From an uncultured Gammaproteobacteria bacterium (GTDB taxonomy: Bacteria; Actinomycetota; Acidimicrobiia; Spongiisociales; ZC4RG35), in the NCBI GenBank assembly GCA_964194995.1, contig CAXMPS010000054.1, positions 1-40,203 on the forward strand: DNA of 40,203 nucleotides, read 5' to 3'. Positions within the stretch are counted from its first letter, which is position 1. Every line of letters begins with the position of its first letter. The notes beneath the pieces are model-generated. The model did no database searches. It worked only from the letters and a program-made list of their open reading frames with translations, and was not told the DNA's origin. This document shows positions 8,738 to 33,806 of the stretch, in pieces. A program made the position numbers and the translations under genes.

Positions 8738-10197
8738 TGATCACCCCACCTGAGATCTCTTGGATCGCGATTGCACCCGATCTGATTCTCGCTCTGGGGG
8801 CTGCAGTTGTTCTCCTTGTCGATGTCCAGTGGAAACCTGCCGTCCGTGTTCTCGGTATGGTGACGGGATTCTCCCTGGTCCTCGCTGTCGGGGCCACTCT
8901 GGTTCAGAAAATGGCCGCGGAGGATGCTGTGCTTGCGGCTGATCCGGGGTCGTTGGTTGCCTTCTCAGGAATGATCCTGATGGATGGGTTTGCCGTTTTC
9001 GCAAGATTCGCCTTGCTTGGCGCCACCGCTCTTGGTGTCCTCGCCGGTTGGCGCTACATCGAGGGCCTCGGGCGTCGCGGCGCCGAGGCGCTGGCCCTAA
9101 TCATGCTGGCTACCGCCGGCTTCTCGATCATGGTGGCTTCAAACAATCTGGTGATGATGTTCCTCGGACTCGAGGTGGGCTCCATCGCCCTCTACGTGCT
9201 GGCAGGGATGAGCAGGGAACGTCCCGAGTCGGATGAGGCGGCGATCAAGTACTTCCTCCTTGGTTCGTTTGCCTCTGCATTCTTCATATACGGCGTGGCT
9301 CTGATCTACGCCGGCACTGGACAGTTCGCCGTCCTGAACATCCGGGCCTTCTTCGACCAATTCGTAGTCACCAGCCCCGCAGTTGTTTACATCGGCATCG
9401 GTTTGGTCGTCGCCGGACTCGGGTTCAAGGTCTCAGCAGCGCCCTTCCACTCGTGGGCTCCCGACGTGTATCAGGGCGCTCCCGCAGGTGTGGTGGGGTA
9501 CATGGCTGCGGTCGCGAAGATTGCAGGGTTCGCTGCCATGGCGAGGATCCTGCTCACCGCTCTGGGTGACCTCGATAGCACCTGGCTCCCGATCGTGGCG
9601 GCGCTCGCCGCGCTCTCCATGCTCGTCGGGTCGACCTTCGCCCTGGTTCAGGGAGACGTCAGGAGAATGCTGGCCTACTCGGGTGTTGCACACGCCGGCT
9701 TCATCATGACCGGTGTGGTGGGTGGCGAAACGCAGGGCATTCTTTTCTATCTGGCCGTCTATGCGGTGCAGCTTCTGGGCGCGTTTGCCGTGGTGGTAGC
9801 TGTCAGTGGAGCTAGCGGAGCTCGTTCTTCCATTGATGACTATCGGGGTCTTGCGCGTCGAAGCCCCGGATTGGCGGGGTCTTTCGCTGTCCTGCTGCTG
9901 GGGATGGCGGGCTTGCCACTGACATCGGGATTCATCGCCAAGTTCGGTGTGTTTGCCGACGCTTGGAACAGCGGATATGAGTGGCTGGTTGTCGTGGCCG
10001 TCCTCGCATCCGTTATTGCGTTCGCTTTCTATTTGCGCATCATCGTCGCTATGTACATGGATGAGGCCGATGTCGAGGCACCGGCCCTGGTACCCACTGT
10101 TCGCTGGGTTGTCGGCCTCACCGTGGTGGCCACGATTGCCTGGGGGATCTTCCCGGGGTCGCTTCTCGATCTGGCTGCAAATGCGCTGCCGCTATAG
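8737..10197 (+). CDS. nuoN: NADH-quinone oxidoreductase subunit N
   Basis: EAAIKYFLLG, FKVSAAPFHSWAPDVYQGAP, RMLAYS, GLPLTSGFIAKF. Confidence 0.97.
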   Translation: MITPPEISWIAIAPDLILALGAAVVLLVDVQWKPAVRVLGMVTGFSLVLAVGATLVQKMAAEDAVLAADPGSLVAFSGMILMDGFAVFARFALLGATALGVLAGWRYIEGLGRRGAEALALIMLATAGFSIMVASNNLVMMFLGLEVGSIALYVLAGMSRERPESDEAAIKYFLLGSFASAFFIYGVALIYAGTGQFAVLNIRAFFDQFVVTSPAVVYIGIGLVVAGLGFKVSAAPFHSWAPDVYQGAPAGVVGYMAAVAKIAGFAAMARILLTALGDLDSTWLPIVAALAALSMLVGSTFALVQGDVRRMLAYSGVAHAGFIMTGVVGGETQGILFYLAVYAVQLLGAFAVVVAVSGASGARSSIDDYRGLARRSPGLAGSFAVLLLGMAGLPLTSGFIAKFGVFADAWNSGYEWLVVVAVLASVIAFAFYLRIIVAMYMDEADVEAPALVPTVRWVVGLTVVATIAWGIFPGSLLDLAANALPL

Positions 10198-10360
10198 GAG
10201 CCCGCTGAATAATGCATGCCACTCATTCCGACGACCCAGTTCATCGCCACTCGCGGTGTCCTCGGCGCCGCCATTCCGCCACAAGGAGTGGCGAAACCTC
10301 CTCCTTGCGAGTGACGCGCCTGGCCGCCGATCTGAGCAACGGCATCAATCAGCAGACTCC
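10197..10360 (+). mobile_element. MITE-like palindromic repeat, copy 1 (164 bp)
   Basis: Imperfect 19-bp terminal inverted repeats (GGAGCCCGCTGAATAATGC ... GCATCAATCAGCAGACTCC), TA on both sides; aligns end to end with 16368-16530 (reverse) and 33644-33806. Confidence 0.85.
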
Positions 10361-11510
10361 TAGGCGGGCCACCAGCGCGCTTCTCTTCGTCGCCGTATTC
10401 CTGGCCGTTACCGCCGCGACGGCCGAGTCGGCGCTAGCGGCTGAAACCGCTTCGTCGGATGTCGTGGTGATCCGGGAAGACGTGGTCGTCGAGGATGATC
10501 TTTATGCCACCGGGATCCGGGTTGTGGTCGAGGGAAGGATCGAGGGCGACCTCATCGCATTCGCCGCTGAAGAGGTTGTGATCGAAGGCGTGGTGACCGG
10601 GAGCGTCTTCGCCGCGACTCAACAGGTCTCTGTCAGCGGTGAGGTCGGCGAGTCATTGCGGGTGAGCGCAACAAGCGTCGATGTCTCGGGGACGGTTGGA
10701 AAAGACCTGGTCGTCGTCAGTTTGGGGTTGGACGTCACCGAGGACGCGGAGATTGGTGGCGACGTCCTCATTTGGGCATGGGGCGCATCCGTTGCCGGGA
10801 CCATCGGGGGCGACCTGACCGCCACTCAGCGCGACCTCGAGCTCGCTGGTTCGGTCGGGGGTGAGGTCGAGGTCACTGTCACCCATCTGACCATCACAGG
10901 CCCGCTGACAGTGGGCGGCGATTTGGCATACCGGTCTGAGTCGCCTGCGACCGGGCTGGAACACGTAGAGGTCGGCGGCGTGGTGGTTCACAAGAGCCCA
11001 CTAGCCCCGAATATTCGGGTGCGTGCCCTTGGTCTTTTGGCGAGAGCCCTTGTTGCGCTCGCACTCACCGCTACCTCGATCCTGGTCGCGTTGGGGTGGC
11101 CGGGGAGGACGGAGCAGGCGGCAAAGCGAGCCAGGTCTGATTGGCTTCGCTCCTACGGCATCGGGTTTCTTGTCATCTTCTCGCCGATCCTGATCATCGG
11201 GGTCAGCGCGCTGATCGTCGCGATTGCTCCGGCAGCCGCATCGCTGCCTTTGCTGGCGGTTCTGGTTCCGGTTGCCATCGTCCTGGCAGGCCTGGTCATG
11301 GCTTTCTCGCTGGTGGCCGGGGCACCCTCGGTGCTCATGCTCGGCCGCCTTCTCCGGGGGAGCCTGGGGATATACGGGGCCATCGTCGCCGGCTCTGCGT
11401 TGGTGAGCCTGGTGTGGTTTCTCCCGATTGTTGGTTGGTTGGTTCCGTTGATCGTGCTTCCCCTCGGAGCTGGGTCCTGGATCGTGGCCAGTCGCATCAA
11501 GCCGGATTGA
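10212..11510 (+). CDS. Beta-helical repeat (polymer-forming/bactofilin-like) membrane protein; 5' end disrupted by the repeat element, start uncertain
   Basis: Signal-peptide-like RRATSALLFVAVFLAVTAATAESALA, V/I-x-G-x-V-x-G-D repeats, then several C-terminal TM helices. The first ~50 codons of the ORF are element-derived. Confidence 0.65.
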   Translation: MHATHSDDPVHRHSRCPRRRHSATRSGETSSLRVTRLAADLSNGINQQTPRRATSALLFVAVFLAVTAATAESALAAETASSDVVVIREDVVVEDDLYATGIRVVVEGRIEGDLIAFAAEEVVIEGVVTGSVFAATQQVSVSGEVGESLRVSATSVDVSGTVGKDLVVVSLGLDVTEDAEIGGDVLIWAWGASVAGTIGGDLTATQRDLELAGSVGGEVEVTVTHLTITGPLTVGGDLAYRSESPATGLEHVEVGGVVVHKSPLAPNIRVRALGLLARALVALALTATSILVALGWPGRTEQAAKRARSDWLRSYGIGFLVIFSPILIIGVSALIVAIAPAAASLPLLAVLVPVAIVLAGLVMAFSLVAGAPSVLMLGRLLRGSLGIYGAIVAGSALVSLVWFLPIVGWLVPLIVLPLGAGSWIVASRIKPD

Positions 11511-11519
11511 ACCTCTCCT

Positions 11520-13743: not shown

Positions 13744-14769
13744 CTACGTTCCTCGGGGATAGACCCGGGCATCAGTCGCCCGAGCACGGCATTTCTGCCC
13801 GGCGGTGTAGCGAGGCCGTGGTCCGATCCTCGATCTGACCCTCGTCCCTTCGCCCACAGCGAGGGTGACTAGCTGGTCGTGGCCGAAGAATTCGACGTTG
13901 GCTACCACGGCATTTGATGTCTCGCCAAGGGAGATCTGGACATTTTCGGGGCGGATCACCACGAGGACCGGTCCCTTGAGGTCGGTCTTGAATCGGCCCA
14001 ACGGCGTGTCGGCGTATCCACGATGGGCGGTAGCGGGGAGCACATCGGCATCGCCGAGAAACTCGGCGATCCAAGGGTTGGCCGGGTTGCTGTACAGCTC
14101 CGCAGGGGCGTCCGCCTGGAGAACTCGCCCATCCTTCATCACTGCGACGATATCCGATGTCGCCAGCGCTTCCTCCTGGTCGTGGGTCACGAACACTGCG
14201 GTGATCCTTGCTTCGGTCAGGATCATCCGCAGCTCGCGCCTGACCCGATCTCGGAGTGCGGCATCCAGGTTGGAGAAGGGCTCGTCGAGGAGGATTACGT
14301 CAGGTTTGGGGGCCAGCGCCCGGGCCAGAGCCACTCTTTGCTGCTCTCCACCGGAAAGCTCATTGGGCATCCTGTCGTCGAGTCCCTGCAGCCCTACAAG
14401 CTCGAGTACTGCGTCGATCCTGCGAGTCCCTTTTCTTCGAGACAGCCCATAGGCCACATTTGCCCGCACAGTCATGTGGGGGAAGAGGGCGTAATCCTGG
14501 AAGACCATTCCGACCTTGCGCCTCTCAGGCGGGACGAAGGTCCCGTTGCCGAGAACTCGCCGGCCCCGGATGTCGACGACTCCCTCGGCACCCTCGAATC
14601 CGGCGATGACGCGCAGTGCGGTGGTCTTCCCGCAGCCAGAAGGTCCGAGCAGCGTCAAAAGACCGCCCTCCCAGACGTCGAGGCTGAAATGGTCGAGTGC
14701 GATGTCGTCGTCGTATGACTTGGACAGGTCGCGAGCTCGGATGGCTAGTTGGTCAGTCGCGGAGGTCAC
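13744..14769 (-). CDS. Fe(III)-type ABC transporter ATP-binding protein (FbpC/PotA family)
   Basis: GPSGCGKT, LSGGEQQR, LLDEPFS, VTHDQEEA; C-terminal TOBE-like region. Confidence 0.93.
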   Translation of the reverse strand: MTSATDQLAIRARDLSKSYDDDIALDHFSLDVWEGGLLTLLGPSGCGKTTALRVIAGFEGAEGVVDIRGRRVLGNGTFVPPERRKVGMVFQDYALFPHMTVRANVAYGLSRRKGTRRIDAVLELVGLQGLDDRMPNELSGGEQQRVALARALAPKPDVILLDEPFSNLDAALRDRVRRELRMILTEARITAVFVTHDQEEALATSDIVAVMKDGRVLQADAPAELYSNPANPWIAEFLGDADVLPATAHRGYADTPLGRFKTDLKGPVLVVIRPENVQISLGETSNAVVANVEFFGHDQLVTLAVGEGTRVRSRIGPRPRYTAGQKCRARATDARVYPRGT

Positions 14770-16351
14770 GGAACATCAGCGCCAAGAGTGGCACGATCGA
14801 CACGGCAAGCAAGGCCAGACTGGCCACGGACGCCCGCGTGTAGAACCCTTCGCCCGTCGTGCTCCAAATCCTGATCGCCAAGGTCTCGAAGCCGTTGGGG
14901 CGGAGCAACAGCGTCGCTGGCAGCTCCTTCATCACTGAAAGAAAGACCAGAGCGGCACCAGCCATGAGCCCGGGGGTCGCAAGGGGGATCGTCACCCTTC
15001 GCAAGGTCGCCAAAGGGCCTCTCCCGAGACCCCGGGAAGCATCCTCCAAGTCGGGGCTCGCTCTCCGCAGGGAATCTTGAGTTGAGCTCATCGTCTGAGC
15101 GAGGAACATCACGACATAAGTGGCCAGAAGCAGCCCCAAGCTCTGGTAAATCGGTCTGGCCCACGCCAGAGCGAACCCGACAACGGCGACACCGACGGTG
15201 ATATGGGGAAGGGCGTATGTTGCCCACACCGCCGTGTCCGCGGCGTCGGACAGCTTGCCTTTTCGGCGCGTTGTGATCATTGCAATCGGGAAGGCGGCGA
15301 AGGCGGCAATTGTCGCCGCGCCGATCGAGACACCCACTGATCGAATTGTCTCCTCCCACACCGTTCCCAGCTCCTGCCCCGCGCCAAGTCCGCGTGTCAG
15401 CCAGAAAATGAGAACTGAGACCGGGATGACGATCGACAGTGTGGTGAGGCTGCCCAGGAAGGCGAGGGCACCAATTCGACTCACCCGTTTGAGAGACAAC
15501 ATCTTTCGAATTCGCTTGACCCGGGGGGCGTGGTAGCTCGCTCGACTCCTGGTCCGGCGCTCCACCAGCAGGATTCCCAGCGCTAGGACCATGAGAATCA
15601 GCGACAGCACCGCAGCCGGCTGACGGTCGATTTGGCCTTCGTAGAGGGTGAAGATGGCCCGAGTGAACGTGTCGTATCTGAGCAGGGAGACTGCCCCGAA
15701 GTCTGAGATGGTGTAGAGACCGACCATGAGACCGGCGGAGACAAGAGCAGGCCGGAGCTGGGGGAGAGTCACTGTGAAGAAGACTCTCCTTTGGCTCGCC
15801 CCCAAGCCGGTGGCGGCGTCTTCGGTGGCGGGATCGATCAGGCGCAGTCCCGGGGTCACGATGAGGTGTGCCATTGGAGAGAGAAACACCGACAAGGCCA
15901 GCCACGCCCCAACAAACCCGTAGGGGGTGGGGATGTCGAACCCGACCCAGCTCGAGATGAGACCTGTCGGCCCTGTGGCGCCAATGATGGTGAGAGCGGC
16001 TACATAGCTTGGCATCACCAGAGGGAGGGCGGCGAGGATCATCCATATCCGACGCCAGGGGACGTCAGTGCGGCTTGTCAGCCATGCGGTAGCGGTTCCC
16101 AGGGAGAGGGCCGTAATCGTGACGGCGACGGTCAAGGCCAGTGTCGCCACGAAAAGCTCCCAGAGACGATCCAAGGGCACGGGTGTTCCGGTGCCTTTGG
16201 TGACCACCTGCCAGACGAGGCTGATCGGAGGGATCAGAACCGGCAACAGGACGATCCCGGCCGCAGTCCACCAGCCCCGCCCACCCGGGCGCCGCTGCTG
16301 CCGAGTCGTGGTCTTCGTCCCCGGTGAGACGACCAGAGGCCCGGCGACCAT
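14753..16351 (-). CDS. Fe(III)-type ABC transporter permease (FbpB-like, duplicated domain)
   Basis: Two EAA-like loops (EDAATGLGA, EDASRGLG), SDFGAV and KELPATL; start taken at ATG 16351 just outside repeat copy 2. Confidence 0.9.
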   Translation of the reverse strand: MVAGPLVVSPGTKTTTRQQRRPGGRGWWTAAGIVLLPVLIPPISLVWQVVTKGTGTPVPLDRLWELFVATLALTVAVTITALSLGTATAWLTSRTDVPWRRIWMILAALPLVMPSYVAALTIIGATGPTGLISSWVGFDIPTPYGFVGAWLALSVFLSPMAHLIVTPGLRLIDPATEDAATGLGASQRRVFFTVTLPQLRPALVSAGLMVGLYTISDFGAVSLLRYDTFTRAIFTLYEGQIDRQPAAVLSLILMVLALGILLVERRTRSRASYHAPRVKRIRKMLSLKRVSRIGALAFLGSLTTLSIVIPVSVLIFWLTRGLGAGQELGTVWEETIRSVGVSIGAATIAAFAAFPIAMITTRRKGKLSDAADTAVWATYALPHITVGVAVVGFALAWARPIYQSLGLLLATYVVMFLAQTMSSTQDSLRRASPDLEDASRGLGRGPLATLRRVTIPLATPGLMAGAALVFLSVMKELPATLLLRPNGFETLAIRIWSTTGEGFYTRASVASLALLAVSIVPLLALMFRDLRD

Positions 16352-16367
16352 CAGCAGCTCGCCCCTG

Positions 16368-16530
16368 GGAGTCTGCTGGGTAATGCCGTTGCTCGGATCG
16401 GCGGCCAGGCGCGCCACTCGCAAGGACGAGGTTTCGCCACTCCTTGGGGTGGAATGGCGGGGCCGAGGGCACCGTGAGTGGCGATGACCTGGCCGTCGAG
16501 ATGGGTGACATGCATTGCTCGGCGGGCTCC
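16368..16530 (-). mobile_element. MITE-like palindromic repeat, copy 2 (163 bp)
   Basis: Reverse-strand copy starting at the G of the TAG stop of the binding-protein gene; about 88% identical to copy 3 by manual count (19 differences). Confidence 0.85.
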
Positions 16531-17519
16531 TACACAAGACCCGCCTCGGCGACGAGTCGCGCGGCGACACCGAGCACGTCGGCCAGAGCCGAGAGGTTTA
16601 TGTCCGGTGCGTTGATTTCCGAGAGCTGGGGGAGTCCCTCAGCCGGGTCGACACCCTCGATCAAGGGGAACTCGAAGGTCTCCTTGGCGAAGTACGTCTG
16701 CGCTGCCGGCGTGAGCAGAAACTCGACGAACTCCCCGGCTGCGGTCGGCATGTTGGTTTCAGAGAGGATGGCGACTCCGGCGGGCATGACAAGAGTTCCC
16801 ACGTCGCCCGCCGGTATGAACCAGTTTTCGGAATCGTCCCCTTCGCCCTCGGCGCGGAGACGCAAAAGGTAGTAGTGGTTTACCAGCCCGCCTTCGATCT
16901 CACCGGAGTCGGCGGCGGCCACTATCGGGCTGTTCTTGGGGTAATCGATCGGGTCGTTGGCGGCAAGGGCCTCGAGCCATTCGAGAGTCGCCTCTTCGCC
17001 CCTTTCGAGGATCATTGCCGAAACAAACGCCAGGAATGACCCATTGGTAGGAGCAACACCGACCTGGCCGGCCCAGACCGGGTCGATGACGTCATCGATG
17101 GTGCTGGGGAGCGGCAGATCGCTCCCGGTGTTGTAGACAAAGGTGCGAACCCGCCCCGAAGTGCCGACCCAGCGACCTTGGTCGTCGGCGAATTTGTCAT
17201 CAACCAGGACGAGGACGTCGGAGGGAAGAACTGTCAACATGTCCGCGACCGAGCCAAGCGACGCGGGGTCTTGCGCGAAGAAGATGTCGGCTTCTGTTCT
17301 CTCGCCTTCCTCGATCAGAGTGGCGGCCAACTCGGTCGACCCGCCGTACCGGACTTCCACCTCGATCCCGGTGTCCTCGGTGAAGTCATCGATCAGCGGC
17401 TGGACCAACTCCTCCGACCGCCCCGAATAGACCACGAGGGGACCATCGGCCGCATCTGTCCCGGAGCACGAGGCGAGGATCAGGCCGCCGAGAAGAGTCA
17501 ACGCAAACAGTCTTTTCAA
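16530..17519 (-). CDS. Fe(III) ABC transporter substrate-binding lipoprotein (FbpA/FutA-like)
   Basis: Lipobox LASC, VYSGR, GRVR and LVNHYY (tandem Tyr iron ligands); TTG 17519 with AGGAG 7 nt upstream. Confidence 0.9.
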   Translation of the reverse strand: MKRLFALTLLGGLILASCSGTDAADGPLVVYSGRSEELVQPLIDDFTEDTGIEVEVRYGGSTELAATLIEEGERTEADIFFAQDPASLGSVADMLTVLPSDVLVLVDDKFADDQGRWVGTSGRVRTFVYNTGSDLPLPSTIDDVIDPVWAGQVGVAPTNGSFLAFVSAMILERGEEATLEWLEALAANDPIDYPKNSPIVAAADSGEIEGGLVNHYYLLRLRAEGEGDDSENWFIPAGDVGTLVMPAGVAILSETNMPTAAGEFVEFLLTPAAQTYFAKETFEFPLIEGVDPAEGLPQLSEINAPDINLSALADVLGVAARLVAEAGLV

Positions 17520-17531
17520 CCGAGAGCTCCT

Positions 17532-17557
17532 GAGATCGTTAGTTACCGAACGATCTC
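17532..17557. promoter_or_regulatory. Inverted repeat upstream of the iron ABC operon, candidate operator or leader hairpin
   Basis: GAGATCGTT-AGTTACCG-AACGATCTC, perfect 9-bp arms just upstream of the RBS. Confidence 0.4.
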
Positions 17558-17624
17558 GAAATCTATTACCGCCGAGACCGCTCTGCAACATTTTCTGCCA
17601 ACTCTCGGCGCCCGCTCTCGCTGC

Positions 17625-17669
17625 GTTGCTCGTGCTTAACGTCCCGGAAATCGGGACGTCTTGCACGAC
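17625..17669 (+). repeat. REP-like hairpin, left of the DUF559 gene
   Basis: GTTGCTCGTGCTTAACGTCCCG-GAAAT-CGGGACGTCTTGCACGAC; inverted copy at 18626-18670. Confidence 0.8.
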
Positions 17670-17718
17670 AGTGGACAAACGGGTTGAAGTTGGGTCGGTT
17701 TGGTGGCATTAGTCGGGT

Positions 17719-18648
17719 GTGGGGGATGATCGGCTGATCGATGTGTTCGCCTCGCGTCAGTACGGGGCGTTCAGTGTTGCCCAGGTCAGGGAGGCGGGTC
17801 TTGATCGCAGGGCGGTGAGTCGGCGCATTGCCACAGGGGCCTGGGTGAAGCTATGCCCGGGCGCATACGCGCTCACTTCGGCTCCGCCCATCTGGGAGCG
17901 GCAGCTCTCCGCCGCCGTGCTCAGCAGGTCGCGCGCCGTCGTGGCGGGCGCTTCGGCCGCCTATCTGCATCGATTCCAGGGTTTCGGCACGGAGCGTCCG
18001 GTGATCATGGTGCCGTGGAGCGGGAACGGCAGATCGCCTATCGCCAGAGTGATCCGATCCACGTTCTTTCTGACGGTGTCGACCGAGAGGAAGATGGCGT
18101 TCGTGACGACAACAGCGGCGGAGACCCTGCTGACGCTTGCCGCCTCTTGGAAAGAACCCAAGCTCGCCTCCTTGCTCGATGATTGTCTGCTGACCGGCAA
18201 GGTGAAGATCGATGAATTCGACCCGATTTTCGATCGTATCGTCGGGGCTCGGCTGGCCGGAGCGGGCCGGCTGCGCACATTGGTCGAACAGCGCCTTCCA
18301 GACGTTTTCGAGATCGGAGCTACCTATCTGGAGCGTTGTCTTCAACGCGTGCTCACCGACGATCGGATCCCGTCCTGGTCACAGGAACACCCGTTCTCGA
18401 TCAATGGGGCGCCTGGACGGGTAGACGCATTCATTCCCCACTGGCTACTGGTGGTCGAAGCAGACAGCCGTCGATGGCACGCCCGCCAAGCGGATTTCGA
18501 ATCCGATCGACGCCGGGACAACGGCCTTGCGGCTCAGGGAATACAGGTCTTGCGTTTCTCTTATTCGATGCTGACCAAGAGTCCCGAGCGGTGCTTGGTC
18601 AACATTCTCGACGTTGGAGAACACCGTCGTGCAGATGGTCCTGTTTAA
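17719..18648 (+). CDS. AbiEi-like N-terminal domain plus DUF559 (Vsr-like PD-(D/E)xK) endonuclease domain protein
   Basis: N-terminal RQYGAFS...AG...GAW...PGAY typical of actinobacterial AbiEi-like domains; C-terminal RVDA...LVVEADSRRWH...DRRRDN.L...G..VLRF typical of DUF559. Confidence 0.85.
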   Translation: MGDDRLIDVFASRQYGAFSVAQVREAGLDRRAVSRRIATGAWVKLCPGAYALTSAPPIWERQLSAAVLSRSRAVVAGASAAYLHRFQGFGTERPVIMVPWSGNGRSPIARVIRSTFFLTVSTERKMAFVTTTAAETLLTLAASWKEPKLASLLDDCLLTGKVKIDEFDPIFDRIVGARLAGAGRLRTLVEQRLPDVFEIGATYLERCLQRVLTDDRIPSWSQEHPFSINGAPGRVDAFIPHWLLVVEADSRRWHARQADFESDRRRDNGLAAQGIQVLRFSYSMLTKSPERCLVNILDVGEHRRADGPV

Positions 18649-18670
18649 CGGGACGTTACGCACGAGCAAC
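18626..18670 (-). repeat. REP-like hairpin, right of the DUF559 gene
   Basis: Reverse complement GTTGCTCGTGCGTAACGTCCCG-TTAAA-CAGGACCATCTGCACGAC; outer 22 bp match the left copy 21/22, 36/45 overall. Confidence 0.8.
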
Positions 18671-21293: not shown

Positions 21294-21294
21294 C

Positions 21295-23989: not shown

Positions 23990-24071
23990 TGCTGGTTCAG
24001 CTGAATTTCGATTCAGCCCTTCAGTCGATGAGTCGTGTTAGCCGCCGCATGGGAGCAGAGCAGGTGGCGGC

Positions 24072-24623
24072 TTGACCTTTTCCGCCTGGATATCCGAGCC
24101 GATCAACTGGGTCTTTCTCCTTGTGGGACTGATCGTGCTCGTGTCAGGATTCCGTGTCGTGACCGCCAAGAACGTCGTGCACGCGGCTCTGCTGCTGGTG
24201 GCCGCCCTCGCCGGAACCGCAGGACTCTTTCTCATGCTCGCGGCGGAGTTCGTCGCCTGGGTGCTGGTCCTGGTTTACATCGGAGCGGTGATCGTGCTGT
24301 TCCTATTCGGAATCATGATCACCCGCGCTCCGACCGGTCAGGATGAGGGTCTCGATTCCGAGAAGAAGATTGTCCCCGCCCTGCTTTCGGTTGGCGTCTT
24401 CTTGTTGATGGCCTGGGCGTCGATCGACGCCTTCAGCACCACGCTGGTGGGCGGGACGGGGGATCCGATTTCGACCGAGTTGATCGGCGAGTCTCTGCTT
24501 GGCAGATTCGTCATCCCGTTCGAGGTGGTCTCCTTCGTCCTGTTGGCGGCGCTGATCGGCAGTATCACTCTGGCCCGCAAGGACCTCACGCCAATCGAGG
24601 AAGAGGAAGGACAGCGGGTCTGA
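24072..24623 (+). CDS. nuoJ: Complex I-like subunit J (second operon)
   Basis: NVVHAAL, VYIGAVIVLFLFGIM, PFEVVS; TTG start (in-frame stop at 24039 limits extension). Confidence 0.93.
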   Translation: MTFSAWISEPINWVFLLVGLIVLVSGFRVVTAKNVVHAALLLVAALAGTAGLFLMLAAEFVAWVLVLVYIGAVIVLFLFGIMITRAPTGQDEGLDSEKKIVPALLSVGVFLLMAWASIDAFSTTLVGGTGDPISTELIGESLLGRFVIPFEVVSFVLLAALIGSITLARKDLTPIEEEEGQRV

Positions 24624-24928
24624 TGATTCTGAACCAGTTCCTCATCCTGGCGGCGGCTCTTTTCGCCTTCGGCATCTATGGCCTGCTGGTCCGAAGGAAC
24701 ATCGTGCTGATCCTCCTCTCTGTTGAGTTGATGCTCACCGCCGTAAATATCAACTTCATCGCCTTCGAGTCCGTCTTTCGCAGCTCCGACGCCATAGGCC
24801 AGGTTTTCACCATCTTCATAATCACCGTCGCCGCCGCCGAGGTGGGCATCGGGCTGGCGATCGTGCTGATGATCTTCAGGAACCGTAAGTCCGCCAACGT
24901 CGACGACCTCAGACTGATGAGGTACTGA
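24623..24928 (+). CDS. nuoK: Complex I-like subunit K (second operon)
   Basis: RRNI...SVELML and AAAEVGIGLAI. Confidence 0.96.
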   Translation: MILNQFLILAAALFAFGIYGLLVRRNIVLILLSVELMLTAVNINFIAFESVFRSSDAIGQVFTIFIITVAAAEVGIGLAIVLMIFRNRKSANVDDLRLMRY

Positions 24929-26955
24929 TGCAGTCTGGTTTCCTCATTCTGGCCCAGGAGGCGCACGAGATCCAGGCGGGTGACGGTGGCTGGTGGGCCG
25001 ACACCGCCGGCATCATGCTGGTCCTTCCTTTGGGGGCCTTTCTGCTGATCCTGGCAGTTGGAAAGAGGATGAAGTACGACGGAGGGGAAATCGCCATCGG
25101 GGCTCTCGCGATAAATGCGGTCTGGGCCAGCGTGCTGATGGTCCTCAACATGACAGAGGGTGTTCTCACCCAGACCACATTCGTGATCGGACGCATTGGC
25201 AGCGGCCTCGTCTTCGAGCTGGGATGGATCGTCGACGGGCTCTCGATCCTGATGTACTTCCTCGTCTCGGTGGTGGGGCTTCTCGTCTTCATCTACGCCG
25301 TCGGTTACATGAAGGGCGACCGTCGGGTGCCCTGGTTCTTCGCCGCCTTTTCCCTGTTCGCCGGCTCGATGTTGGTTCTGGTTGGTGCGCCGAACCTGGT
25401 GCAAATGATTATCGGATGGGAGGGCGTAGGTCTCGCTTCCTACCTGCTGATCGGGTTCTATTGGGAGGACATCGCCAACGTCAAGGCCGGCAACAAGGCG
25501 TTCCTCGTCAACAAGGTGGCGGACGTCGGCCTCGTTCTCGGCGCGATCATCCTCGCCCTCGCCGTCGGATCCTTCGATTTCTTCGACATCAACGAGGCCG
25601 CGATCTCGGGGAATGCAGAACTCGGGGCGGTAGCCGTAGTGGGAGCCCTGCTTCTTTTCTTCGGCGCGATGGGAAAGAGTGCCGTGTTCCCGCTTCACAT
25701 CTGGCTGCCCGACGCTATGGCGGGGCCGACTCCGGTCTCGGCGCTGATGCATGCGGCGACCATGGTCACCGCCGGCGTGTATCTCATGGCCCGAATGTTT
25801 CCGCTGTATCAGAACATGGCACAGGAAGCTCGGACCCCGATGATCGTCCTCGGCGCGATAACCCTGTTTGGAGTCGGCTTGCTGGCCCTGGTCGCGAAGG
25901 ACATCAAGAGACTCCTGGCGTACTCGACTGTCTCCCAACTCGGGTACATGATGACCGCGATCGCCGCTGGTGGCTACACGGCCAGCATGTTCCATTTGTT
26001 TACGCATGCCTTTTTCAAGGCTCTGCTCTTCCTCTGTGCCGGCTCGGTAATTCATGCCGTCCACTCCAACAACATGAGCGACATGGGCGGTCTCCGCAAG
26101 TACATGCCCAGGACGTACTGGACCTGGATCGCTGGGTCCCTGGCCCTTGCCGGAGTTGGGCTTTCCGGGTTCTGGTCGAAGGATGAAATCCTCTCGACTG
26201 TGGGTAACGAGGGATACCAGTTCGTAATGTGGGTGGCGATCGCGGGGGCTTTCGTGACGGCTTTCTACATGGCACGCGCCACCGCTCTCACCTTTCACGG
26301 CAGTTACAAGGGCCAACGGGAGCCGCACGAGTCGCCGAGCGTGATGACCGTGCCGCTGATACTGCTCGCGATACCGACTGTCTTCGCCGGCCTCCTCAAC
26401 ATACCGGGCTTCTCCTGGCCGGCCATAGGAAACTTCACCGAGTGGCTGGCGGTTCGGATCGTTCCAATGGGTGATCATCATGCCGAGTCCATCGACTGGC
26501 TCATCGCCGGTATCGGTCTGCTGGCAGCAGTCGCCGGCATTGCCGTCGGCTGGGCGATATTCTCCAAGGACCGAGACAGACAAGAAGATCGCGACCTGTT
26601 CGAGATCCCCGTCTTCTATCCGCTCTTCAGGCGAGGCTATTACATCGATGACGTCGCCCTTGGTGTAGTTGGCGCCACCAATGGGCCCATCGCCCGTTTC
26701 GTCGATTGGACCAACACCCACATACTTGATGCGATCGTCAACGGGGTGGGCATGGCGGTCAAGCACCTGGGCGGGTTTGTCTACGGCGTCATTGACCAGA
26801 GGGGTGTTGATGGCGTTGTTCACGGAGTGTCGGCGGCAGCCGACGGCGCCGGCTCCGTTTTGCGCAAGATGCAGACCGGCCGAGTTCAGCAATATGCGGC
26901 GTCCTTCGTTGCAGGGGCGCTCATCTTGGTAGTCGTGTTCGTGTTCGTCCTATAG
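24928..26955 (+). CDS. nuoL: Complex I-like subunit L (second operon)
   Basis: [42 protein letters not shown]. Confidence 0.96.
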   Translation: MQSGFLILAQEAHEIQAGDGGWWADTAGIMLVLPLGAFLLILAVGKRMKYDGGEIAIGALAINAVWASVLMVLNMTEGVLTQTTFVIGRIGSGLVFELGWIVDGLSILMYFLVSVVGLLVFIYAVGYMKGDRRVPWFFAAFSLFAGSMLVLVGAPNLVQMIIGWEGVGLASYLLIGFYWEDIANVKAGNKAFLVNKVADVGLVLGAIILALAVGSFDFFDINEAAISGNAELGAVAVVGALLLFFGAMGKSAVFPLHIWLPDAMAGPTPVSALMHAATMVTAGVYLMARMFPLYQNMAQEARTPMIVLGAITLFGVGLLALVAKDIKRLLAYSTVSQLGYMMTAIAAGGYTASMFHLFTHAFFKALLFLCAGSVIHAVHSNNMSDMGGLRKYMPRTYWTWIAGSLALAGVGLSGFWSKDEILSTVGNEGYQFVMWVAIAGAFVTAFYMARATALTFHGSYKGQREPHESPSVMTVPLILLAIPTVFAGLLNIPGFSWPAIGNFTEWLAVRIVPMGDHHAESIDWLIAGIGLLAAVAGIAVGWAIFSKDRDRQEDRDLFEIPVFYPLFRRGYYIDDVALGVVGATNGPIARFVDWTNTHILDAIVNGVGMAVKHLGGFVYGVIDQRGVDGVVHGVSAAADGAGSVLRKMQTGRVQQYAASFVAGALILVVVFVFVL

Positions 26956-26970
26956 GAGAGGCTGATAGCG

Positions 26971-28590
26971 ATGGAATGGTTCGAAAGTTGGGGCGTCTCA
27001 CTGATTGTGTTCTTGCCCCTCGCGGGGGTCCTTCTCCTCGGCTTGATACCCAAGGCCAACGAGAACGCCCTGAAGCGGACGGCTCTGCTCGTGTCGCTGG
27101 CCGTTTTTGCCCTGTCGCTGGTACTCATCGGGCAGTTCGATTTCGGCGGCGGTCGGTACAACACGTATCAGTTCGAGGTGAATCAGACCTGGATCGGCTC
27201 CATAAATGCCAACTACCACATTGGCGTCGACGGAATCAGCCTGCCTCTCCTGGTTCTGTCCACCTTCGTGATGTTGCTGGCGGTTATCTACTCCTGGAAC
27301 AACTGGGACGAGCCCAAGAACCCCAAGGCTTTCCTGATCCTCATGATGATCCTGGCGACCGGGATGAACGGAACCTTTGTTGCCCTCGACCTCGTCCTGT
27401 TCTTTGTCTTCTTCGAGATTGTGTTGCTTCCGATGTACTTCATGATCGGAATCTGGGGCGACCGCACTCCACGAAGGATCCCGGGATTCAGCAGGGACGT
27501 GGAGACGAGGCTCTATGCCTCGATCAAGTTCTTCCTGTTCACTTTGTTCGGGTCGGCCTTCATGCTGCTTGGCTTCCTCGCCCTCTACTTCGAATCGGCG
27601 AGCTTCGGGGAGCGCACCTTCGATATCGTGCAGTTGACGGAGCTCGGTGCCTTGGGCTCCTTCACCGGCAGCTTTGCTTTCTGGGTTTTTGGGGCGATGT
27701 TCCTCGGGTTTGCAATCAAGGTGCCGATGTGGCCCTTCCACACTTGGCTCCCGGACGCTCATACGGCTGCGCCGACAGTCGGCTCTGTTCTCTTGGCGGC
27801 GATTCTCCTGAAGCTCGGCTCATACGGCTTCATCCGAATCGCCTTGCCGATCCTCCCCGACGAGGCGAGAAACTGGGCCCCGGCCATCGCCATTCTCGCG
27901 GTCATTGGGATCATCTACGGATCGCTGGCCTGTCTGGCTCAGACCGATTTGAAGCGCCTCATCGCCTTTTCCTCAGTGGGCCACATGGGCTTTGTGATGC
28001 TTGGAATCGCGACCCTGACCGACATCGGGATCAACGCGGCCATCATTGGGATGGTTGCCCACGGTCTGATCACAGGTCTGCTCTTTTTCCTTGCCGGCTC
28101 GATGCACCATCGCTACCACACCAGGGATATGGCGCGCCTTGGTGGCAACCTGAAACTGATGCCCGTGTTGGGCGGAATACTTGCGTTCACGGCGATGGCG
28201 TCACTGGGCCTGCCGGGGCTGGCAGGGTTCTGGGGCGAGTTCATGTCGCTTGTCAGTGCCTACAACCCGCTTGACGGCCTGTCGCTCGGCGTCTTCCGCA
28301 CCTCGATGGTCTTGGCCGCGATCGGGACCGTCCTGACAGCCGGCTACATGTTGTGGATGTTGCAGAAGGTCAACCTGGGTGAGCCGGCCGACGAGTGGCA
28401 GAGTCACGAGTTCCACGATGTGGATCGGTTCGAGATAGCGGCCTGGGTGCCGCTCATAATCCTGATCGTCGTGATTGGCTTCTATCCAAACGTCGTCTTC
28501 AGCGCCACCACCGACACCGTCACCTCGCTGGTCGACATGGTGTTCAACGGCGATGCGACCGCTGCGCTGACCAGTTTGAAAGGCGGCTGA
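26971..28590 (+). CDS. nuoM: Complex I-like subunit M (second operon)
   Basis: GVDGIS, KVPMWPFHTWLPDAH, KLGSYG, GLPGLAGFWGEF. Confidence 0.96.
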   Translation: MEWFESWGVSLIVFLPLAGVLLLGLIPKANENALKRTALLVSLAVFALSLVLIGQFDFGGGRYNTYQFEVNQTWIGSINANYHIGVDGISLPLLVLSTFVMLLAVIYSWNNWDEPKNPKAFLILMMILATGMNGTFVALDLVLFFVFFEIVLLPMYFMIGIWGDRTPRRIPGFSRDVETRLYASIKFFLFTLFGSAFMLLGFLALYFESASFGERTFDIVQLTELGALGSFTGSFAFWVFGAMFLGFAIKVPMWPFHTWLPDAHTAAPTVGSVLLAAILLKLGSYGFIRIALPILPDEARNWAPAIAILAVIGIIYGSLACLAQTDLKRLIAFSSVGHMGFVMLGIATLTDIGINAAIIGMVAHGLITGLLFFLAGSMHHRYHTRDMARLGGNLKLMPVLGGILAFTAMASLGLPGLAGFWGEFMSLVSAYNPLDGLSLGVFRTSMVLAAIGTVLTAGYMLWMLQKVNLGEPADEWQSHEFHDVDRFEIAAWVPLIILIVVIGFYPNVVFSATTDTVTSLVDMVFNGDATAALTSLKGG

Positions 28591-28593
28591 TCG

Positions 28594-30078
28594 GTGACAT
28601 TCACCATCGACTACCTGGCTCTGGCGCCCGAACTGGTGATCGTCGGGACGTTGTTGGTTGTGTTCACGCTGGACATGATTCTCACCCGGCCCAAGAAGTT
28701 CTGGATCGCGACCGCCGCCGTCGCGGGAACAGCACTGGCTGCCATCCCTCTGGTGATCCTCGGCGTCCAAGGGGAAACCCGATCCATGTTCGACGGTTCG
28801 TATGTGGTCGATGAGTTTGCCCTGGTCCTCAAAGGCCTGTTCATCGTTGCGGCCTATCTGGTCCTGCTGATGTCCCATCACTACATCGAGTCAGACCGCT
28901 ATTACCAGGGTGAGTACTACTTCCTCCTCCTGGCGTCGGTCCTGGGCTCCTTGGTGATGGCGTCCTCACGGGATCTGATCATCCTCTTCATCGGGCTCGA
29001 GTTGACGACCGCACCATTGTTCCTCCTCGCTGGATGGAGAAAAGGAGACTCCAAGTCCAATGAGGCGTCTTTGAAGTACTTCATCCTCGGAGTCCTCTCA
29101 ACGGCGATCCTGCTCTACGGCATGTCATTCCTCTACGGGTTGACTGGCGAGATCACCTTCAGCGGTCTGGCTGAGGCCACCGCCGGGCGGGGAGACGAGC
29201 CGGCGATGGTCATGGCAATTCTCTTTGTGATCGTTGGTTTCGGCTTCAAGATCGCCGCGGTTCCATTCCACTTCTGGGCGCCTGACACATATGAGGGCGC
29301 ACCGACGCCGATCACCGCCTACCTGTCGGTCAACTCCAAGATTGCCGGTTTCGTGGCCTTGTTGCTGATGCTGTACCTCGCCCTTCCCGGCGTTTCGGAG
29401 GTGTGGGCGCCCGCGCTCTGGATCCTTGCTGCCCTCTCGATGACGATTGGGAACCTGTCGGCGTTGCGACAAACGAACATTGTTCGACTACTGGCCTATT
29501 CGTCTGTGGCTCAGGCCGGATTCATGTTGGTGCCGTTCGCCGCGGCCGCCGTTGTCGGGGCCGATCTGGAAGAGGCCTTTGCCGCGACAGTCGTTTATCT
29601 CGCGATCTACGCCGTGATGAACCTGGGCGCCTTTGCCGTGGTGATCGCAGGAGCCCGCAAGACGGGTTCAGGCGAATTGCCGGCCTGGTCTGGTCTCGCT
29701 CAGGTCGATTCGAGGCTTGGTGTTCTGGTTGCGGTGTTCTTCTTCAGCCTTGCCGGGATTCCCCCGTTGGCCGGATGGTTCGCCAAGTTCGCCATGTTCC
29801 GCTCGGTGATGATCGCCGGCGGGGAGGCAACAGTCGCTCTGGCGGTGATTGCCGCGGTCAACGCTGTTATCGCGCTGTACTACTACGCCAAGGTGGTCAA
29901 GACCGTTTGGGTGGACGACCCCACCGGGGAGTTTGCCGAAGGTGTGGAAGCGGCGCCGGCCGGTTCTTTGCGTTTGGCGCTGGGGGTCTCATTGACTCTC
30001 ACCGTTGTCATCGGGTTCTTCCCCGCTCTGGTCACCTTCGTGGGTGACGCCTCCCGGGTAATTGCCGCGGGCGGCTGA
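28594..30078 (+). CDS. nuoN: Complex I-like subunit N (second operon)
   Basis: EASLKYFILG, FKIAAVPFHFWAPDTYEGAP, GIPPLAGWFAKF. Confidence 0.96.
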   Translation: MTFTIDYLALAPELVIVGTLLVVFTLDMILTRPKKFWIATAAVAGTALAAIPLVILGVQGETRSMFDGSYVVDEFALVLKGLFIVAAYLVLLMSHHYIESDRYYQGEYYFLLLASVLGSLVMASSRDLIILFIGLELTTAPLFLLAGWRKGDSKSNEASLKYFILGVLSTAILLYGMSFLYGLTGEITFSGLAEATAGRGDEPAMVMAILFVIVGFGFKIAAVPFHFWAPDTYEGAPTPITAYLSVNSKIAGFVALLLMLYLALPGVSEVWAPALWILAALSMTIGNLSALRQTNIVRLLAYSSVAQAGFMLVPFAAAAVVGADLEEAFAATVVYLAIYAVMNLGAFAVVIAGARKTGSGELPAWSGLAQVDSRLGVLVAVFFFSLAGIPPLAGWFAKFAMFRSVMIAGGEATVALAVIAAVNAVIALYYYAKVVKTVWVDDPTGEFAEGVEAAPAGSLRLALGVSLTLTVVIGFFPALVTFVGDASRVIAAGG

Positions 30079-30261: not shown

Positions 30262-30307
30262 GCGAACAGGCTACCGATCTCAAACTTGGGCTCGAATACC
30301 CACCAGC

Positions 30308-30886: not shown

Positions 30887-30892
30887 CCGGTC

Positions 30893-30914: not shown

Positions 30915-30923
30915 GTGCGCCTC

Positions 30924-31457
30924 ATGTGGGACAGCCTCCATCTAATCGCCGCACATCCGGCACCCGGTGACCGGGCAATGGCGGCAGTCCTCGCTCCCCT
31001 CTACGAGGACGACAGCGGCAGGATAAGGGTCGTGCTCACCAAGCGCCCCGACACCATGCCGACTCACGCCGGACATATCGCTTTTCCCGGTGGTCGTGCC
31101 CATCCTGAAGACGATGGCCCGGTAGACACAGCGCTTCGTGAGGCGCATGAGGAGGTGGGGATCGAGCGAGACCAGGTCGAGGTTCTCGGCTTTCTCCCTG
31201 CGATCGACACGGTCGAATTCAGTCCTCTGGTTGTCCCGGTCGTTGGCAGGATCAGCACTCCGCTTGGGCTCGTTCTCTCCGAGCGCGAGGTCGTGAAGGT
31301 ATACGCGCCGCTCCTCTTGGATCTGGCTGACGAGTCGAAGTGGTGGTCTGTCCCTTGGGATGGCCGGCAGATCTGGTACTACGAACTCGAAGGCGACACC
31401 CTTTGGGGGGCGACAGCCTGGATGATTCGCACAATGCTCGGTCTCCTAGACAGGTAG
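30924..31457 (+). CDS. Nudix hydrolase, CoA pyrophosphatase type
   Basis: LTKR...HAGHIAFPGG plus Nudix box ALREAHEEVG and C-terminal LWGATA; start ATG 30924 or GTG 30915. Confidence 0.9.
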   Translation: MWDSLHLIAAHPAPGDRAMAAVLAPLYEDDSGRIRVVLTKRPDTMPTHAGHIAFPGGRAHPEDDGPVDTALREAHEEVGIERDQVEVLGFLPAIDTVEFSPLVVPVVGRISTPLGLVLSEREVVKVYAPLLLDLADESKWWSVPWDGRQIWYYELEGDTLWGATAWMIRTMLGLLDR

Positions 31458-31582
31458 ACCCAACCTGGCCCGCTCCTCCTGAGTGCGGCAACGCCACCCA
31501 CGCTGGGACACTGTCAAGAATTCGACCCGACGGCTCCGTTGTGTCTCGGCCGACATAGAATGCTCGATTCGGGCAACCTCGG

Positions 31583-32653
31583 GTGGAGAACTTGCGAAGG
31601 AAACTCCTAATCGGCGCTGGACTAGTCGCACTCCTGCTCCTGGCAACAGGGGCCACTTTCGCCTTGTCGACCTGGGGTGAGGTAAACCGGGTTTCGATCG
31701 ACCGCCCCGTCTCAGCCGGTGTCGAAGCCGCTGCTGAGCCCGCGGCGGAATCCGAGCCAGACGTCGATCCGGAGACCGGAGTAACGATCCCCCCAAGCGA
31801 TGGTGGTCTGGACGTCTTCTTGTTGGTCGGATCGGACTCGAGGGACGCACTTGAAGACGTGGAAGGGTTCGGCGAATTCGTTGGTGAGCGAGCAGACGTG
31901 GTGATGGTGATGATTCGGCCCCACGATGGCTCTACCGCTGCAATGCTCTCCCTTCCCCGCGATCTGCTGGTTGAAGATATCTGTGGAGGCGATGATCATC
32001 GGCTCAATGACGCACTCGAGGGTTGCGGTGACGCGATGAACGGCGCCACGGCTCTGACCCTGAGCGTGGAGTCGATCTTGGGGATCACCGTGGATCATCT
32101 TGCTCTTGTCGACCTTGCCGGCTTCCAGGGGGTCGTGGATGCCGTCGGTGGCTATGAGATCTGTCTGGAGCGACAAGTGCGCGATCAAAAGGCCAACCTC
32201 GAGCTTCCCGCCGGCTGCACTCAGGCCTCCGGCGAGCAGACTCTTGCCTGGATGAGATCGCGAAGCACACAGGAACTCACGGCGTCGGGATGGCGGGTCG
32301 TTCCGGGGGTCAGCGACCTGACACGCAACGAACGACAGCGCGTGTTCATGGTTTCGATGTTGTCGAGACTCTCAGACTTCGGCAGTCCTCAGGACATTGC
32401 AGCGGTGGCCCAGGCGGTGGCTCCGAATGTGACTGTGGACTCGGAATTGACCCTTGTTGACGCCGTTAGCTTGGCTTGGACCATGCGGGGTCTCGGCACC
32501 GGTTCGGTCAACACGCTCGAAGTCCCGGTTATGAATGTCACGACCGCCTCGGGAGCGGCAGTCCTGGTTGCGACAGTCGATGTCTCCGAGATCGTGGCCT
32601 CGTATCTCTCGCCCGAGTCGGCCGCCAACGCCTCCCCTACATTCTCCAAGTAG
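31583..32653 (+). CDS. LCP (LytR-CpsA-Psr) family cell-envelope phosphotransferase
   Basis: N-terminal TM, LLVGSDSR, RADVVM, SLPRDL, AWMRSR, DLTRNERQ. Confidence 0.92.
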   Translation: MENLRRKLLIGAGLVALLLLATGATFALSTWGEVNRVSIDRPVSAGVEAAAEPAAESEPDVDPETGVTIPPSDGGLDVFLLVGSDSRDALEDVEGFGEFVGERADVVMVMIRPHDGSTAAMLSLPRDLLVEDICGGDDHRLNDALEGCGDAMNGATALTLSVESILGITVDHLALVDLAGFQGVVDAVGGYEICLERQVRDQKANLELPAGCTQASGEQTLAWMRSRSTQELTASGWRVVPGVSDLTRNERQRVFMVSMLSRLSDFGSPQDIAAVAQAVAPNVTVDSELTLVDAVSLAWTMRGLGTGSVNTLEVPVMNVTTASGAAVLVATVDVSEIVASYLSPESAANASPTFSK

Positions 32654-32663
32654 GACTGGTGCG

Positions 32664-33644
32664 GTGACCAACAAGCAGCGAGTGTTTTCAGGCATCCAGC
32701 CCACTGGGGGCCTTCCCCACGTGGGCAACTATGTCGGCGCGCTGAACAATTGGGTCGAGATGCAGGCTGATTACGACACGATCTATTGCGTCGTCGACCT
32801 TCACTCGATGACCATTCCCTACGATCCTCATGAGTTCAAGCAGGCGAGGATCGACACAGCCAAGATGTTGCTCGCCGTGGGTGTCGACCCGGGAACGTCG
32901 CTTCTCTACTACCAGGCCGATGTTCTCCAGCACGTCGAACTGGCCTGGATACTCTCCACGATCACCGGCCTCGGTCAGTTGGAGAGGATGACCCAGTTCA
33001 AGGAGAAGTCCGACCGGGCGGGCAAGAATCTGGGACTCCTGGCCTATCCCGTTTTGATGGCGGCCGACATCTTGATCCACAAGGTGCATGCGGTCCCGGT
33101 CGGGGATGACCAGGCACAACACCTCGAACTCGCCCGTGACCTCGCGATGCGCTTCAACGCCAGGTTCGGTGATGAGTTTCCCGTTCCGGATCGGATCACT
33201 CCAGGGGTCGGGGCACGGGTGATGTCCCTCACTGATCCAACAACGAAAATGTCTGGCTCTGATCCGAGCGGGAAATCTCGCATCCTCTTGAATGACTCTC
33301 CTGACATCATCGTCAGAAAGGTCAGGTCTGCGGTGACCGACACTGGGTCGCAGGTCGTCTACGACCCTGATGGCAAGCCAGGGATCTCGAATCTCCTCGA
33401 ATTGTTCAGTTTCTTCACCGGTCGATCGATCGATTCTCTTGCAGACGAGTACGTCGATGCTGGCTACGGGACGTTCAAGGCCGCCGTCGGCGAGGCAATC
33501 TCCGAGGGTCTCGGGCCGATCAGGGAACGCTACGAAGCCGTCGATGATGGCGAGGTTTCCTTGATCATGCGGCGGGGCGCCGAGGAAGCTCGTGATCGTG
33601 CCGAGATGGAGATGAAGTCGGTCCGGGAGAAGATCGGGCTATAG
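32664..33644 (+). CDS. trpS: Tryptophan--tRNA ligase
   Basis: FSGIQPTG, HVGNY (HIGH), YPVLMAADIL, VPVGDDQ, KMSGS; start at GTG 32664 after the LCP stop. Confidence 0.95.
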   Translation: MTNKQRVFSGIQPTGGLPHVGNYVGALNNWVEMQADYDTIYCVVDLHSMTIPYDPHEFKQARIDTAKMLLAVGVDPGTSLLYYQADVLQHVELAWILSTITGLGQLERMTQFKEKSDRAGKNLGLLAYPVLMAADILIHKVHAVPVGDDQAQHLELARDLAMRFNARFGDEFPVPDRITPGVGARVMSLTDPTTKMSGSDPSGKSRILLNDSPDIIVRKVRSAVTDTGSQVVYDPDGKPGISNLLELFSFFTGRSIDSLADEYVDAGYGTFKAAVGEAISEGLGPIRERYEAVDDGEVSLIMRRGAEEARDRAEMEMKSVREKIGL

Positions 33645-33806
33645 GAGCCCGCTGAACAATGCATGTCACTTATCTCGACGACCATGTCATCGCCACTCGC
33701 GGTGTCCTCGGCTCCGCCATTCCGATCCGAGGAGTGGCGAAACCTCGTTCTTGCGAGTGGCGCGCCTGGCCGCCGATCTGACCGACGGCATTATCCAACA
33801 GACTCC
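33644..33806 (+). mobile_element. MITE-like palindromic repeat, copy 3 (163 bp)
   Basis: Begins at the G of the trpS TAG; GGAGCCCGCTGAACAATGC ... GCATTATCCAACAGACTCC; about 87% identical to copy 1 by manual count. Confidence 0.85.

Follow-up and report, generated by a model that had tools for sequence, protein, structure and literature searches.

Stop-codon-hugging hairpin repeats of an uncultured Acidimicrobiia bacterium are miniature transposable elements that probably borrow the ends and enzyme of an IS1182-family insertion sequence

How do copies of one short repeat come to begin, to the letter, on the stop codons of genes? The question is raised by contig C54 (GenBank CAXMPS010000054.1; 40,203 nucleotides, analyzed over its whole length and herein called the window) of G000, a metagenome-assembled genome (MAG) of an uncultured Acidimicrobiia bacterium (2.37 Mb, 519 contigs, 75.6% complete, 60.7% G+C). 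An original prediction, made from the letters of the window alone, had described three ~163-bp copies of an element resembling a miniature inverted-repeat transposable element (MITE), fused to TAG stop codons in a fixed orientation and moved in trans by an IS5- or IS630-like enzyme. The repeats are indeed a MITE, and probably one that borrows the ends and the enzyme of a ~1.76-kb insertion sequence (IS) of the IS1182 family. The three copies and the genes that they touch are as follows.

10197..10360, plus strand: MITE copy 1, 164 bp, with one extra C near position 40; flanked by TA at 10195-10196 and TA at 10361-10362
16368..16530, minus strand: MITE copy 2, 163 bp, inside one ATP-binding cassette (ABC) operon, between a solute-binding-protein gene and a permease gene; left TA at 16531-16532, right duplicate decayed to CA at 16366-16367
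33644..33806, plus strand: MITE copy 3, 163 bp, on the TAG of a Trp/Tyr-tRNA synthetase gene; left TA at 33642-33643, right duplicate decayed to TG at 33807-33808
8737..10197, plus strand: nuoN-like gene (Proton_antipo_M), TAG stop rebuilt by copy 1
16530..17678, minus strand: solute-binding-protein gene, TAG rebuilt by copy 2
32535..33644, plus strand: class I Trp/Tyr-tRNA synthetase gene, TAG rebuilt by copy 3

The description of these copies withstood inspection in place, identity, ends, and flanks. Pairwise identity among the three is 86.8 to 88.5%; the ends are of the GGAGYCYGCTGAA type, with outermost bases GGAG...CTCC, and TA on the left is answered by TA, CA, and TG on the right. The first G of each copy completes the TAG that closes a long open reading frame (ORF), and the genes so closed, previously read as nuoN, an iron-binding protein gene, and trpS, are confirmed as nuoN-like, solute-binding, and Trp/Tyr-tRNA synthetase genes. 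Whole-genome searches give no DDE_3, DDE_Tnp_1, or IS1182 transposase match on C54, in agreement with the earlier statement that the window holds no transposase; the element, non-coding and ~163 bp long, is also non-autonomous, as had been supposed.

The repeat is far beyond chance, because G000 holds 29 full-length copies by BLAST (161 to 164 bp, one cut by a contig end) and a reversed-pattern control returns 0 matches; the search with the 19-nt repeat pattern, which was used for short forms and solo ends, adds 10 two-ended forms of 37 to 76 bp and further solo ends. The high copy number guessed from the window is thus real across the 2.37 Mb. Our survey covered 41 genomes, G000 counted among them, and 7 have matches, G000 included. 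Within the genus, G003 has at least 20 copies at 87 to 93% identity, and G001 and G002 have 0. G015 holds 4 copies, tandem ones included; G020 carries at least 20 copies of a diverged 162-bp family (~73% identity); and the matches in G029, G040, and G022 are partial or diverged. Exact matches to the repeat or its core in public records carry titles that are nearly all those of Acidimicrobiia or Actinomycetota MAGs. In consensus the two 19-nt terminal inverted repeats agree at 16 of 19 positions, and the whole element forms one long imperfect hairpin. Mini-ORFs are not kept, since a 1-nt length difference in the G020 family shifts the frame. Short, non-coding, equipped with terminal inverted repeats and a TA duplication, dispersed, and variable between relatives, the repeats are a MITE.

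Association with stop codons was tabulated genome-wide using gene calls from a self-trained ORF caller, which are rough (2288 genes in G000; stops TGA 1250, TAG 548, TAA 241). Of the 28 complete G000 copies, 13 have an end that coincides exactly with a called stop (10 on the left, 4 on the right, both in one copy); so do 6 of 18 copies in G003 (2 left, 4 right) and 2 of 16 in G020 (1 left, 1 right). As a null we took the non-genic CTAG sites of G000, of which 178 of 935 (19%) form stop codons, compared with 7.7% for any TA. Against this expectation the G000 count is a 2.4-fold excess (p = 9e-4), and with the three genomes pooled 21 of 62 copies are on stops (p = 0.004); the association is real. 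Selection against promoter-side insertions would add to the excess. The fixed orientation does not survive the same tabulation: across the three genomes 13 left ends stand against 9 right ends on stops (p = 0.52), and in co-directional gene contexts the element is in plus orientation 25 times and in minus orientation 16 times (p = 0.21). That all three window copies point the same way is a small-sample coincidence.

Sites without the element show what it inserts into. G003 lacks it at all three window sites, with flanks 86 to 92% identical. At site 1, which is clean, G003 reads CTC-TAG-T where G000 reads TA-element-TA-G, and G001 and G002 also have C-TAG. Site 2 is likewise clean: GTC-TAG-TGAGGAG...ATG in G003, with 4 nt in place of 169, corresponds to TA-element-CA-G in G000. 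Site 3 reads TAG-TACTCC-TAG in G003, which may be a footprint, a remnant, or native sequence. Insertion apparently duplicates the TA of the native TAG stop within CTAG, and the stop is recreated at the junction; both the decayed TA duplication and the restored TAG of the original prediction are thereby supported. The base before TA at the three sites is C in G003, and A, G, and A in G000. CTAG is rare in G000, with 2199 occurrences against 8427 expected from base composition.

The converse case, an empty site in the window that is filled in a relative, is also found:

31440..31460, no strand assigned: unoccupied CTAG site, reading GTC-TAG-G on the minus strand, at which G003 has a full copy

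The counterpart locus in G003 (L095) has flanks 87 to 92% identical. For 12 of the 18 full G003 copies both flanks were found in G000: one site (on C4) is filled in both genomes, 4 hold a short form in G000 and a full copy in G003, ~3 are remnants, 1 is the clean unoccupied CTAG just listed, and the others are ambiguous. The 4 sites with short and full forms indicate that short forms arise by internal deletion in place. Tandem copies in G015 and at locus L066 fit the conversion of one CTAG into two by each insertion.

A repeat-pattern search found no paired repeats at IS distance in G000 or G003. The search for a transposase with the same ends, carried out with DDE_Tnp_1 in MITE-bearing relatives, led to a 1667-bp unit on contig C89 of G029. 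It is flanked C-TA...TA-G, its right end resembles the MITE repeat, and it is missing at the orthologous site of G040, where a single TA stands. Its ORF encodes an IS1182-family transposase (326 bits on the NCBIfam IS1182 model NF033551, cut-off 270 bits; Pfam DDE_Tnp_1, DDE_Tnp_1_6, and DUF772), and the transposases at loci L176 and L178 score 320 and 318 bits on that model. With the G029 transposase as probe and one genome per species, 80 loci were collected, almost all from Acidimicrobiia. A MITE-type repeat at no more than 4 mismatches of 19 is present in 73 of the 80; in 47 an inverted pair 1699 to 1784 bp apart brackets the transposase gene, 26 have one end only, and 7 have none. The targets of 39 distinct IS copies are CTAG in 36 cases, TTAA in 1, and CTAA in 1, with a decayed or unreadable flank in 1. 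G000 itself has both ends of the IS, each where a contig begins: the opening 149 nt of the L176 unit recur in C333:1-149 at 98.7% identity, and its closing 64 nt recur in C153:1-64 at 95.3%. Compared with the C333 end, the right-repeat consensus of the MITE has 17 of 19 positions in common, a figure that rises to 18 to 19 for single ends.

Several observations weigh against an IS1182-family partner, or against the TA insertion that goes with it. Agreement of the left MITE repeat with the IS ends is limited to 14 of 19 positions, and inside the repeats the MITE bears no resemblance to the IS. The transposase gene body was not assembled in G000 (no tblastn match), a weak objection in a MAG, where a multi-copy IS is expected to lose its gene body; G003 and G015 have no IS1182 match, and they too are MAGs (89% and 96% complete), so this negative is likewise weak. 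The length of the duplication is equivocal, as at CTAG targets a 2-bp TA duplication by an element with ends G...C and a 4-bp CTAG duplication give identical sequence, and the only IS copy that argues for 2 bp is the one in TTAA (L212). Within the IS1182 family, the entry for ISPse1 gives a 4-bp direct repeat rather than TA (PMC3281130), and the target noted for ISPsy36, 'GGCC', points to four bases (PMC8027508). The two flanks differ in a way that is unexplained: C-TA is found at 23 of 48 left ends and TA-G at 28 of 32 right ends (p = 3e-4), and on a recount the left TA is kept in 25 of 29 G000 copies, the right TA in 13 of 28. In 3 G000 copies with a mutated right TA the converging gene runs 5 codons into the element to a TAA of the right repeat; in that frame the left repeat offers no comparable second stop, which may partly explain the better retention of the left TA. 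Equally unexplained, the interior is better conserved between genera than the ends: when the consensus of G000 is compared with that of G020, identity is 89% in the interior arms (20-65 and 101-144), 63 to 74% in the terminal repeats, and 51% at the apex.

Mobilization by an IS630 or Tc1-mariner-type transposase would account directly for the target, since a TA duplicated within CTAG is a classical hallmark of IS630 and the element-free sites here are CTAG with TA duplicated. IS630 and ISY100 duplicate TA (PMC2170065); a title cited in the same article reads 'Preferential transposition of an IS630-associated composite transposon to TA in the 5'-CTAG-3' sequence', and the RUP element, also TA-inserting, is attributed to IS630-Spn1 (PMC2229807). 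The genomes do not bear this out. DDE_3 genes occur in 7 of 41 relatives (a tally that includes G027 and G038), yet the search found none in the MITE-bearing G000, G003, G015, and G020; and in 8 of 11 DDE_3 loci, those from published relatives (3 from unpublished genomes were left out), no repeat comes closer than 5 mismatches of 19, in contrast to the 73 of 80 IS1182-family loci that carry it. An IS630-type mobilizer is therefore improbable, and of the enzymes originally proposed, the IS630-like one finds no support, the ends of the loci inspected being unrelated, while the IS5-like one stands, IS1182 being a relative of IS5 with matching ends. More remote still is a REP/REPIN-like element, moved as single-stranded DNA by a Y1 enzyme of the RAYT or IS200-IS605 type and inserted beside TAG in one orientation and without duplication. 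The asymmetry of the flanks (the left neighboring base varies, and TA-G stands at 28 of 32 right ends) and the tag TAGGAG at the ends in inverted orientation would suit it. The terminal repeats are not themselves palindromic units, however; in 47 of 80 loci a DDE transposase gene lies between these very ends; TA duplication is present; 36 of 39 IS copies have a symmetric CTAG as their site; and both ends of the element contact stop codons. We give this explanation hardly any credence.

A different proposal concerns the ~120-nt interior, which could be a selected RNA or DNA module carried by IS1182 ends, making the family partly domesticated; it might fold within read-through transcripts and so influence their stability, processing, or coupling, or it might be bound by a host factor. 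Besides the conservation of the interior arms, pairing speaks for it: across 49 copies from several genera 90.8% of cells pair, against 34 to 46% with slid partners, and pairs changed on both sides, interior and apex pairs included, number 25 against 9 to 19. The RNA fold of copy 3 has -96.4 kcal/mol on the minus strand (z = -10.4) and -63.2 on the plus strand (z = -2.96), and copy 1 holds the candidate in-frame starts of the downstream gene 10212-11510. Hairpins over the whole length are, on the other hand, usual for MITEs. Variation within G000 and G003 is nearly flat (0.058 in the interior against 0.067 and 0.085 in the repeats), and as the families are few, the compensatory changes go back to a small number of independent events. 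When the two arms are aligned without bias, 10 G-U pairs fall to the minus strand and 3 to the plus (p = 0.09); a 12:0 strand bias of G-U pairs was an artefact of a fold made on that strand. At 4 orthologous sites a deletion has removed the interior, the two orientations relative to transcription divide 25 to 16, as given above, and Rfam has no match to the copy 3 region even at E = 1. A selected interior thus seems doubtful to us, and with it, as a rather unlikely outcome, a partly domesticated family; if it were true, the elements would be portable transcript-end or operon-spacer hairpins of Acidimicrobiia.

Taking the IS1182-family partner as the probable source, we propose the following course of events. 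The 19- to 22-nt terminal inverted repeats of the MITE would be those of a ~1.76-kb IS1182-family IS that is common in Acidimicrobiia and presumably present but unassembled in G000; its DDE transposase, supplied in trans, would bind them. Both the mobilization in trans and the chemistry of the reaction are deduced here from sequence. The target would be the palindrome CTAG, or rarely TTAA or CTAA, with insertion at its TA and duplication of TA; with an element that starts with G and ends with C both junctions would read CTAG again, so that insertion into a TAG stop would do the gene no damage. CTAG has roughly a quarter of its expected frequency, and stop codons make up about a fifth of the non-genic sites; target choice and purifying selection together could thus leave a third to half of surviving copies on stops, in either orientation. 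Old copies would then decay in place, the flanking TA or CTAG mutating and the hairpin interior being deleted to yield the 37- to 76-bp short forms.

As far as these searches go, the family matches no named one: Rfam gives 0 matches at gathering score over the whole window and 0 at E up to 1 on 33600-33850, and a literature search found no Acidimicrobiia miniature inverted-repeat element, which upholds the earlier remark that it was not recognizable. The kind of element is nevertheless ordinary, a MITE with an identifiable IS partner; the family is new. ERIC/YPAL of enterobacteria are 100- to 170-bp hairpin MITEs with TA targets, co-transcribed with their neighbors and known in full and deleted forms, and promoter, IHF, and RNase III functions have been described for Correia/ERIC/YPAL-type elements; the ERIC/YPAL sequences are unrelated to the one here. 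The Correia/nemis elements of Neisseria are likewise 100- to 170-bp hairpin MITEs with TA target, co-transcription with their neighbors, and full and internally deleted forms, but their sequences are unrelated, and the account cited, as far as it was available, names no mobilizer for them (PMC2229807). RUP of Streptococcus pneumoniae shares with the present element its non-coding nature (107 bp in RUP), TA insertion, and repeats resembling those of an IS; it differs in having an IS630 rather than an IS1182 transposase, and the portion of that account consulted reports no association of RUP with stop codons (PMC2229807). The IS of RUP is in the same genome as RUP; in G000 the IS1182 ends are on C333 and C153. 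MITEPsy1 of Pseudomonas syringae, for which an origin from the IS5-family element ISPsy2 has been proposed, also targets CTAG (or YTAA), but has 100 nt, unrelated repeats, a 4-nt duplication, and few copies (PMC3189936).

The closest precedent is provided by the IS1182-derived MITEs of Methanosarcina acetivorans, 160 and 169 bp long with ISMac2 as partner, whose table rows list a direct repeat of 4 bp in one case and 0 in the other (PMC3852290). Like these, the present elements are ~160 bp long, number in the tens, and share their repeats with an IS1182-family partner (PMC3852290); as with ISPsy36 of the same family, for which GGCC is given, the target is a short palindrome (PMC8027508). As far as the ISMac2 rows go, the differences lie in the bacterial host (Acidimicrobiia), the CTAG target with apparent TA duplication, the rebuilt TAG stops, and an interior that folds as a single long hairpin and has no counterpart in the IS. 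A report on CTAG methylation in Halobacterium (PMC7002104) proved not to be relevant.

G...C ends combined with a rare palindrome that overlaps TAG would offer a mechanistic account of stop-hugging repeats in streamlined, uncultured marine actinobacteria, and IS1182 is named as the likely enzyme family. The finding also has practical consequences. The MITE and its IS break MAG assemblies, the breaks at C333:1-149 and C153:1-64 falling inside the IS, and open frames through the element lead gene callers to place starts within it, so that it should be masked in the annotation of Acidimicrobiia. The element plus TA is 165 bp, or 55 codons, and 2 of 3 plus-strand frames are open through the consensus; in 6 of 28 G000 copies the called start of the right-hand neighbor lies inside the element, 5 times at a shared TTG that is 56 nt away from the right end.

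A number of candidates were set aside. A conserved mini-ORF of 40 codons from an ATG in the left repeat was dropped because indels between families shift its frame, and so was the notion that 163 + 2 = 165 bp keeps the frame by design, the G020 family being 162 bp long. C417:1-1325 in G000 is an unrelated IS5-family transposase (a 332-aa open frame) with its own inverted repeats at ~113 and ~1197. The IS1182-family element on C20 of G020 has different repeats of its own and merely lies 50 nt from a MITE-like end. A diverged interior-like fragment at 17274-17383 of C236 lies at the 5' end of a membrane-protein ORF and is not a transposase, and L057 is a solo repeat beside ordinary genes. L136, with the core at both ends, was considered as an autonomous copy and rejected, having two ordinary genes and no transposase.

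The last of these, a public MAG contig (L136:1-2247), has its two genes, ATP-grasp RimK-like and desuccinylase-like by eye, between two direct G020-type MITE copies, and the coverage in its title is ~fourfold above that of its neighbors; it could be a MITE-bounded duplicated or mobile segment. In two other contigs from public Acidimicrobiia MAGs, a different small, GC-rich hairpin repeat is nested one to three times within MITE copies, whose length thereby grows to 405 bp (L047:4448-4852) and 326 bp (L060:546-871); several public MAG contigs end inside the MITE. The G029 unit (L148:1429-3095 in our locus set) differs between its two ends: on the left stands an end of GGAGTGTGGGTC type, and on the right a MITE-type 17-mer lies outside an inner GTGGGG-type repeat. 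Despite this the unit is present in G029 and absent from G040 as one piece. Several decayed right flanks of the MITE read CCTGG or CCAGG, which is what very-short-patch-type repair would yield.

Three further features of the window adjoin the MITE copies.

33809..33827, plus strand: solo terminal-repeat remnant that immediately follows copy 3 and departs from the 19-nt pattern at 2 positions
14753..16351, minus strand: ABC permease gene, with its ATG at 16351, 17 nt past the right end of copy 2
10212..11510, plus strand: secreted-protein ORF downstream of copy 1, its ancestral start gone

The remnant, which the original prediction had not noted, is probably the leftover of a second, tandem copy. 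The short distance to the permease ATG places copy 2 inside an operon. The secreted-protein gene starts in G001 and G002 at an ATG overlapping the end of nuoN and in G003 at an ATG 30 nt after the TAG; in G000 the G003-type ATG reads AGC, and ~20 nt of spacer have been lost. The in-frame starts found 5' of its signal peptide, picked by eye and not by systematic scan, are ATG 10212, TTG 10305, and GTG 10311, all within copy 1. Farther afield, the window carries two paralogous nuo (NADH:quinone oxidoreductase) operons on the same strand, at 1-10197 and 19872-30078, with 107- to 133-nt segments 72 to 76% identical and spaced ~19.7 kb, and a 49-nt inverted repeat (17625-17673 / 18622-18670, 80% complementary) brackets the ORF at 17719-18648.

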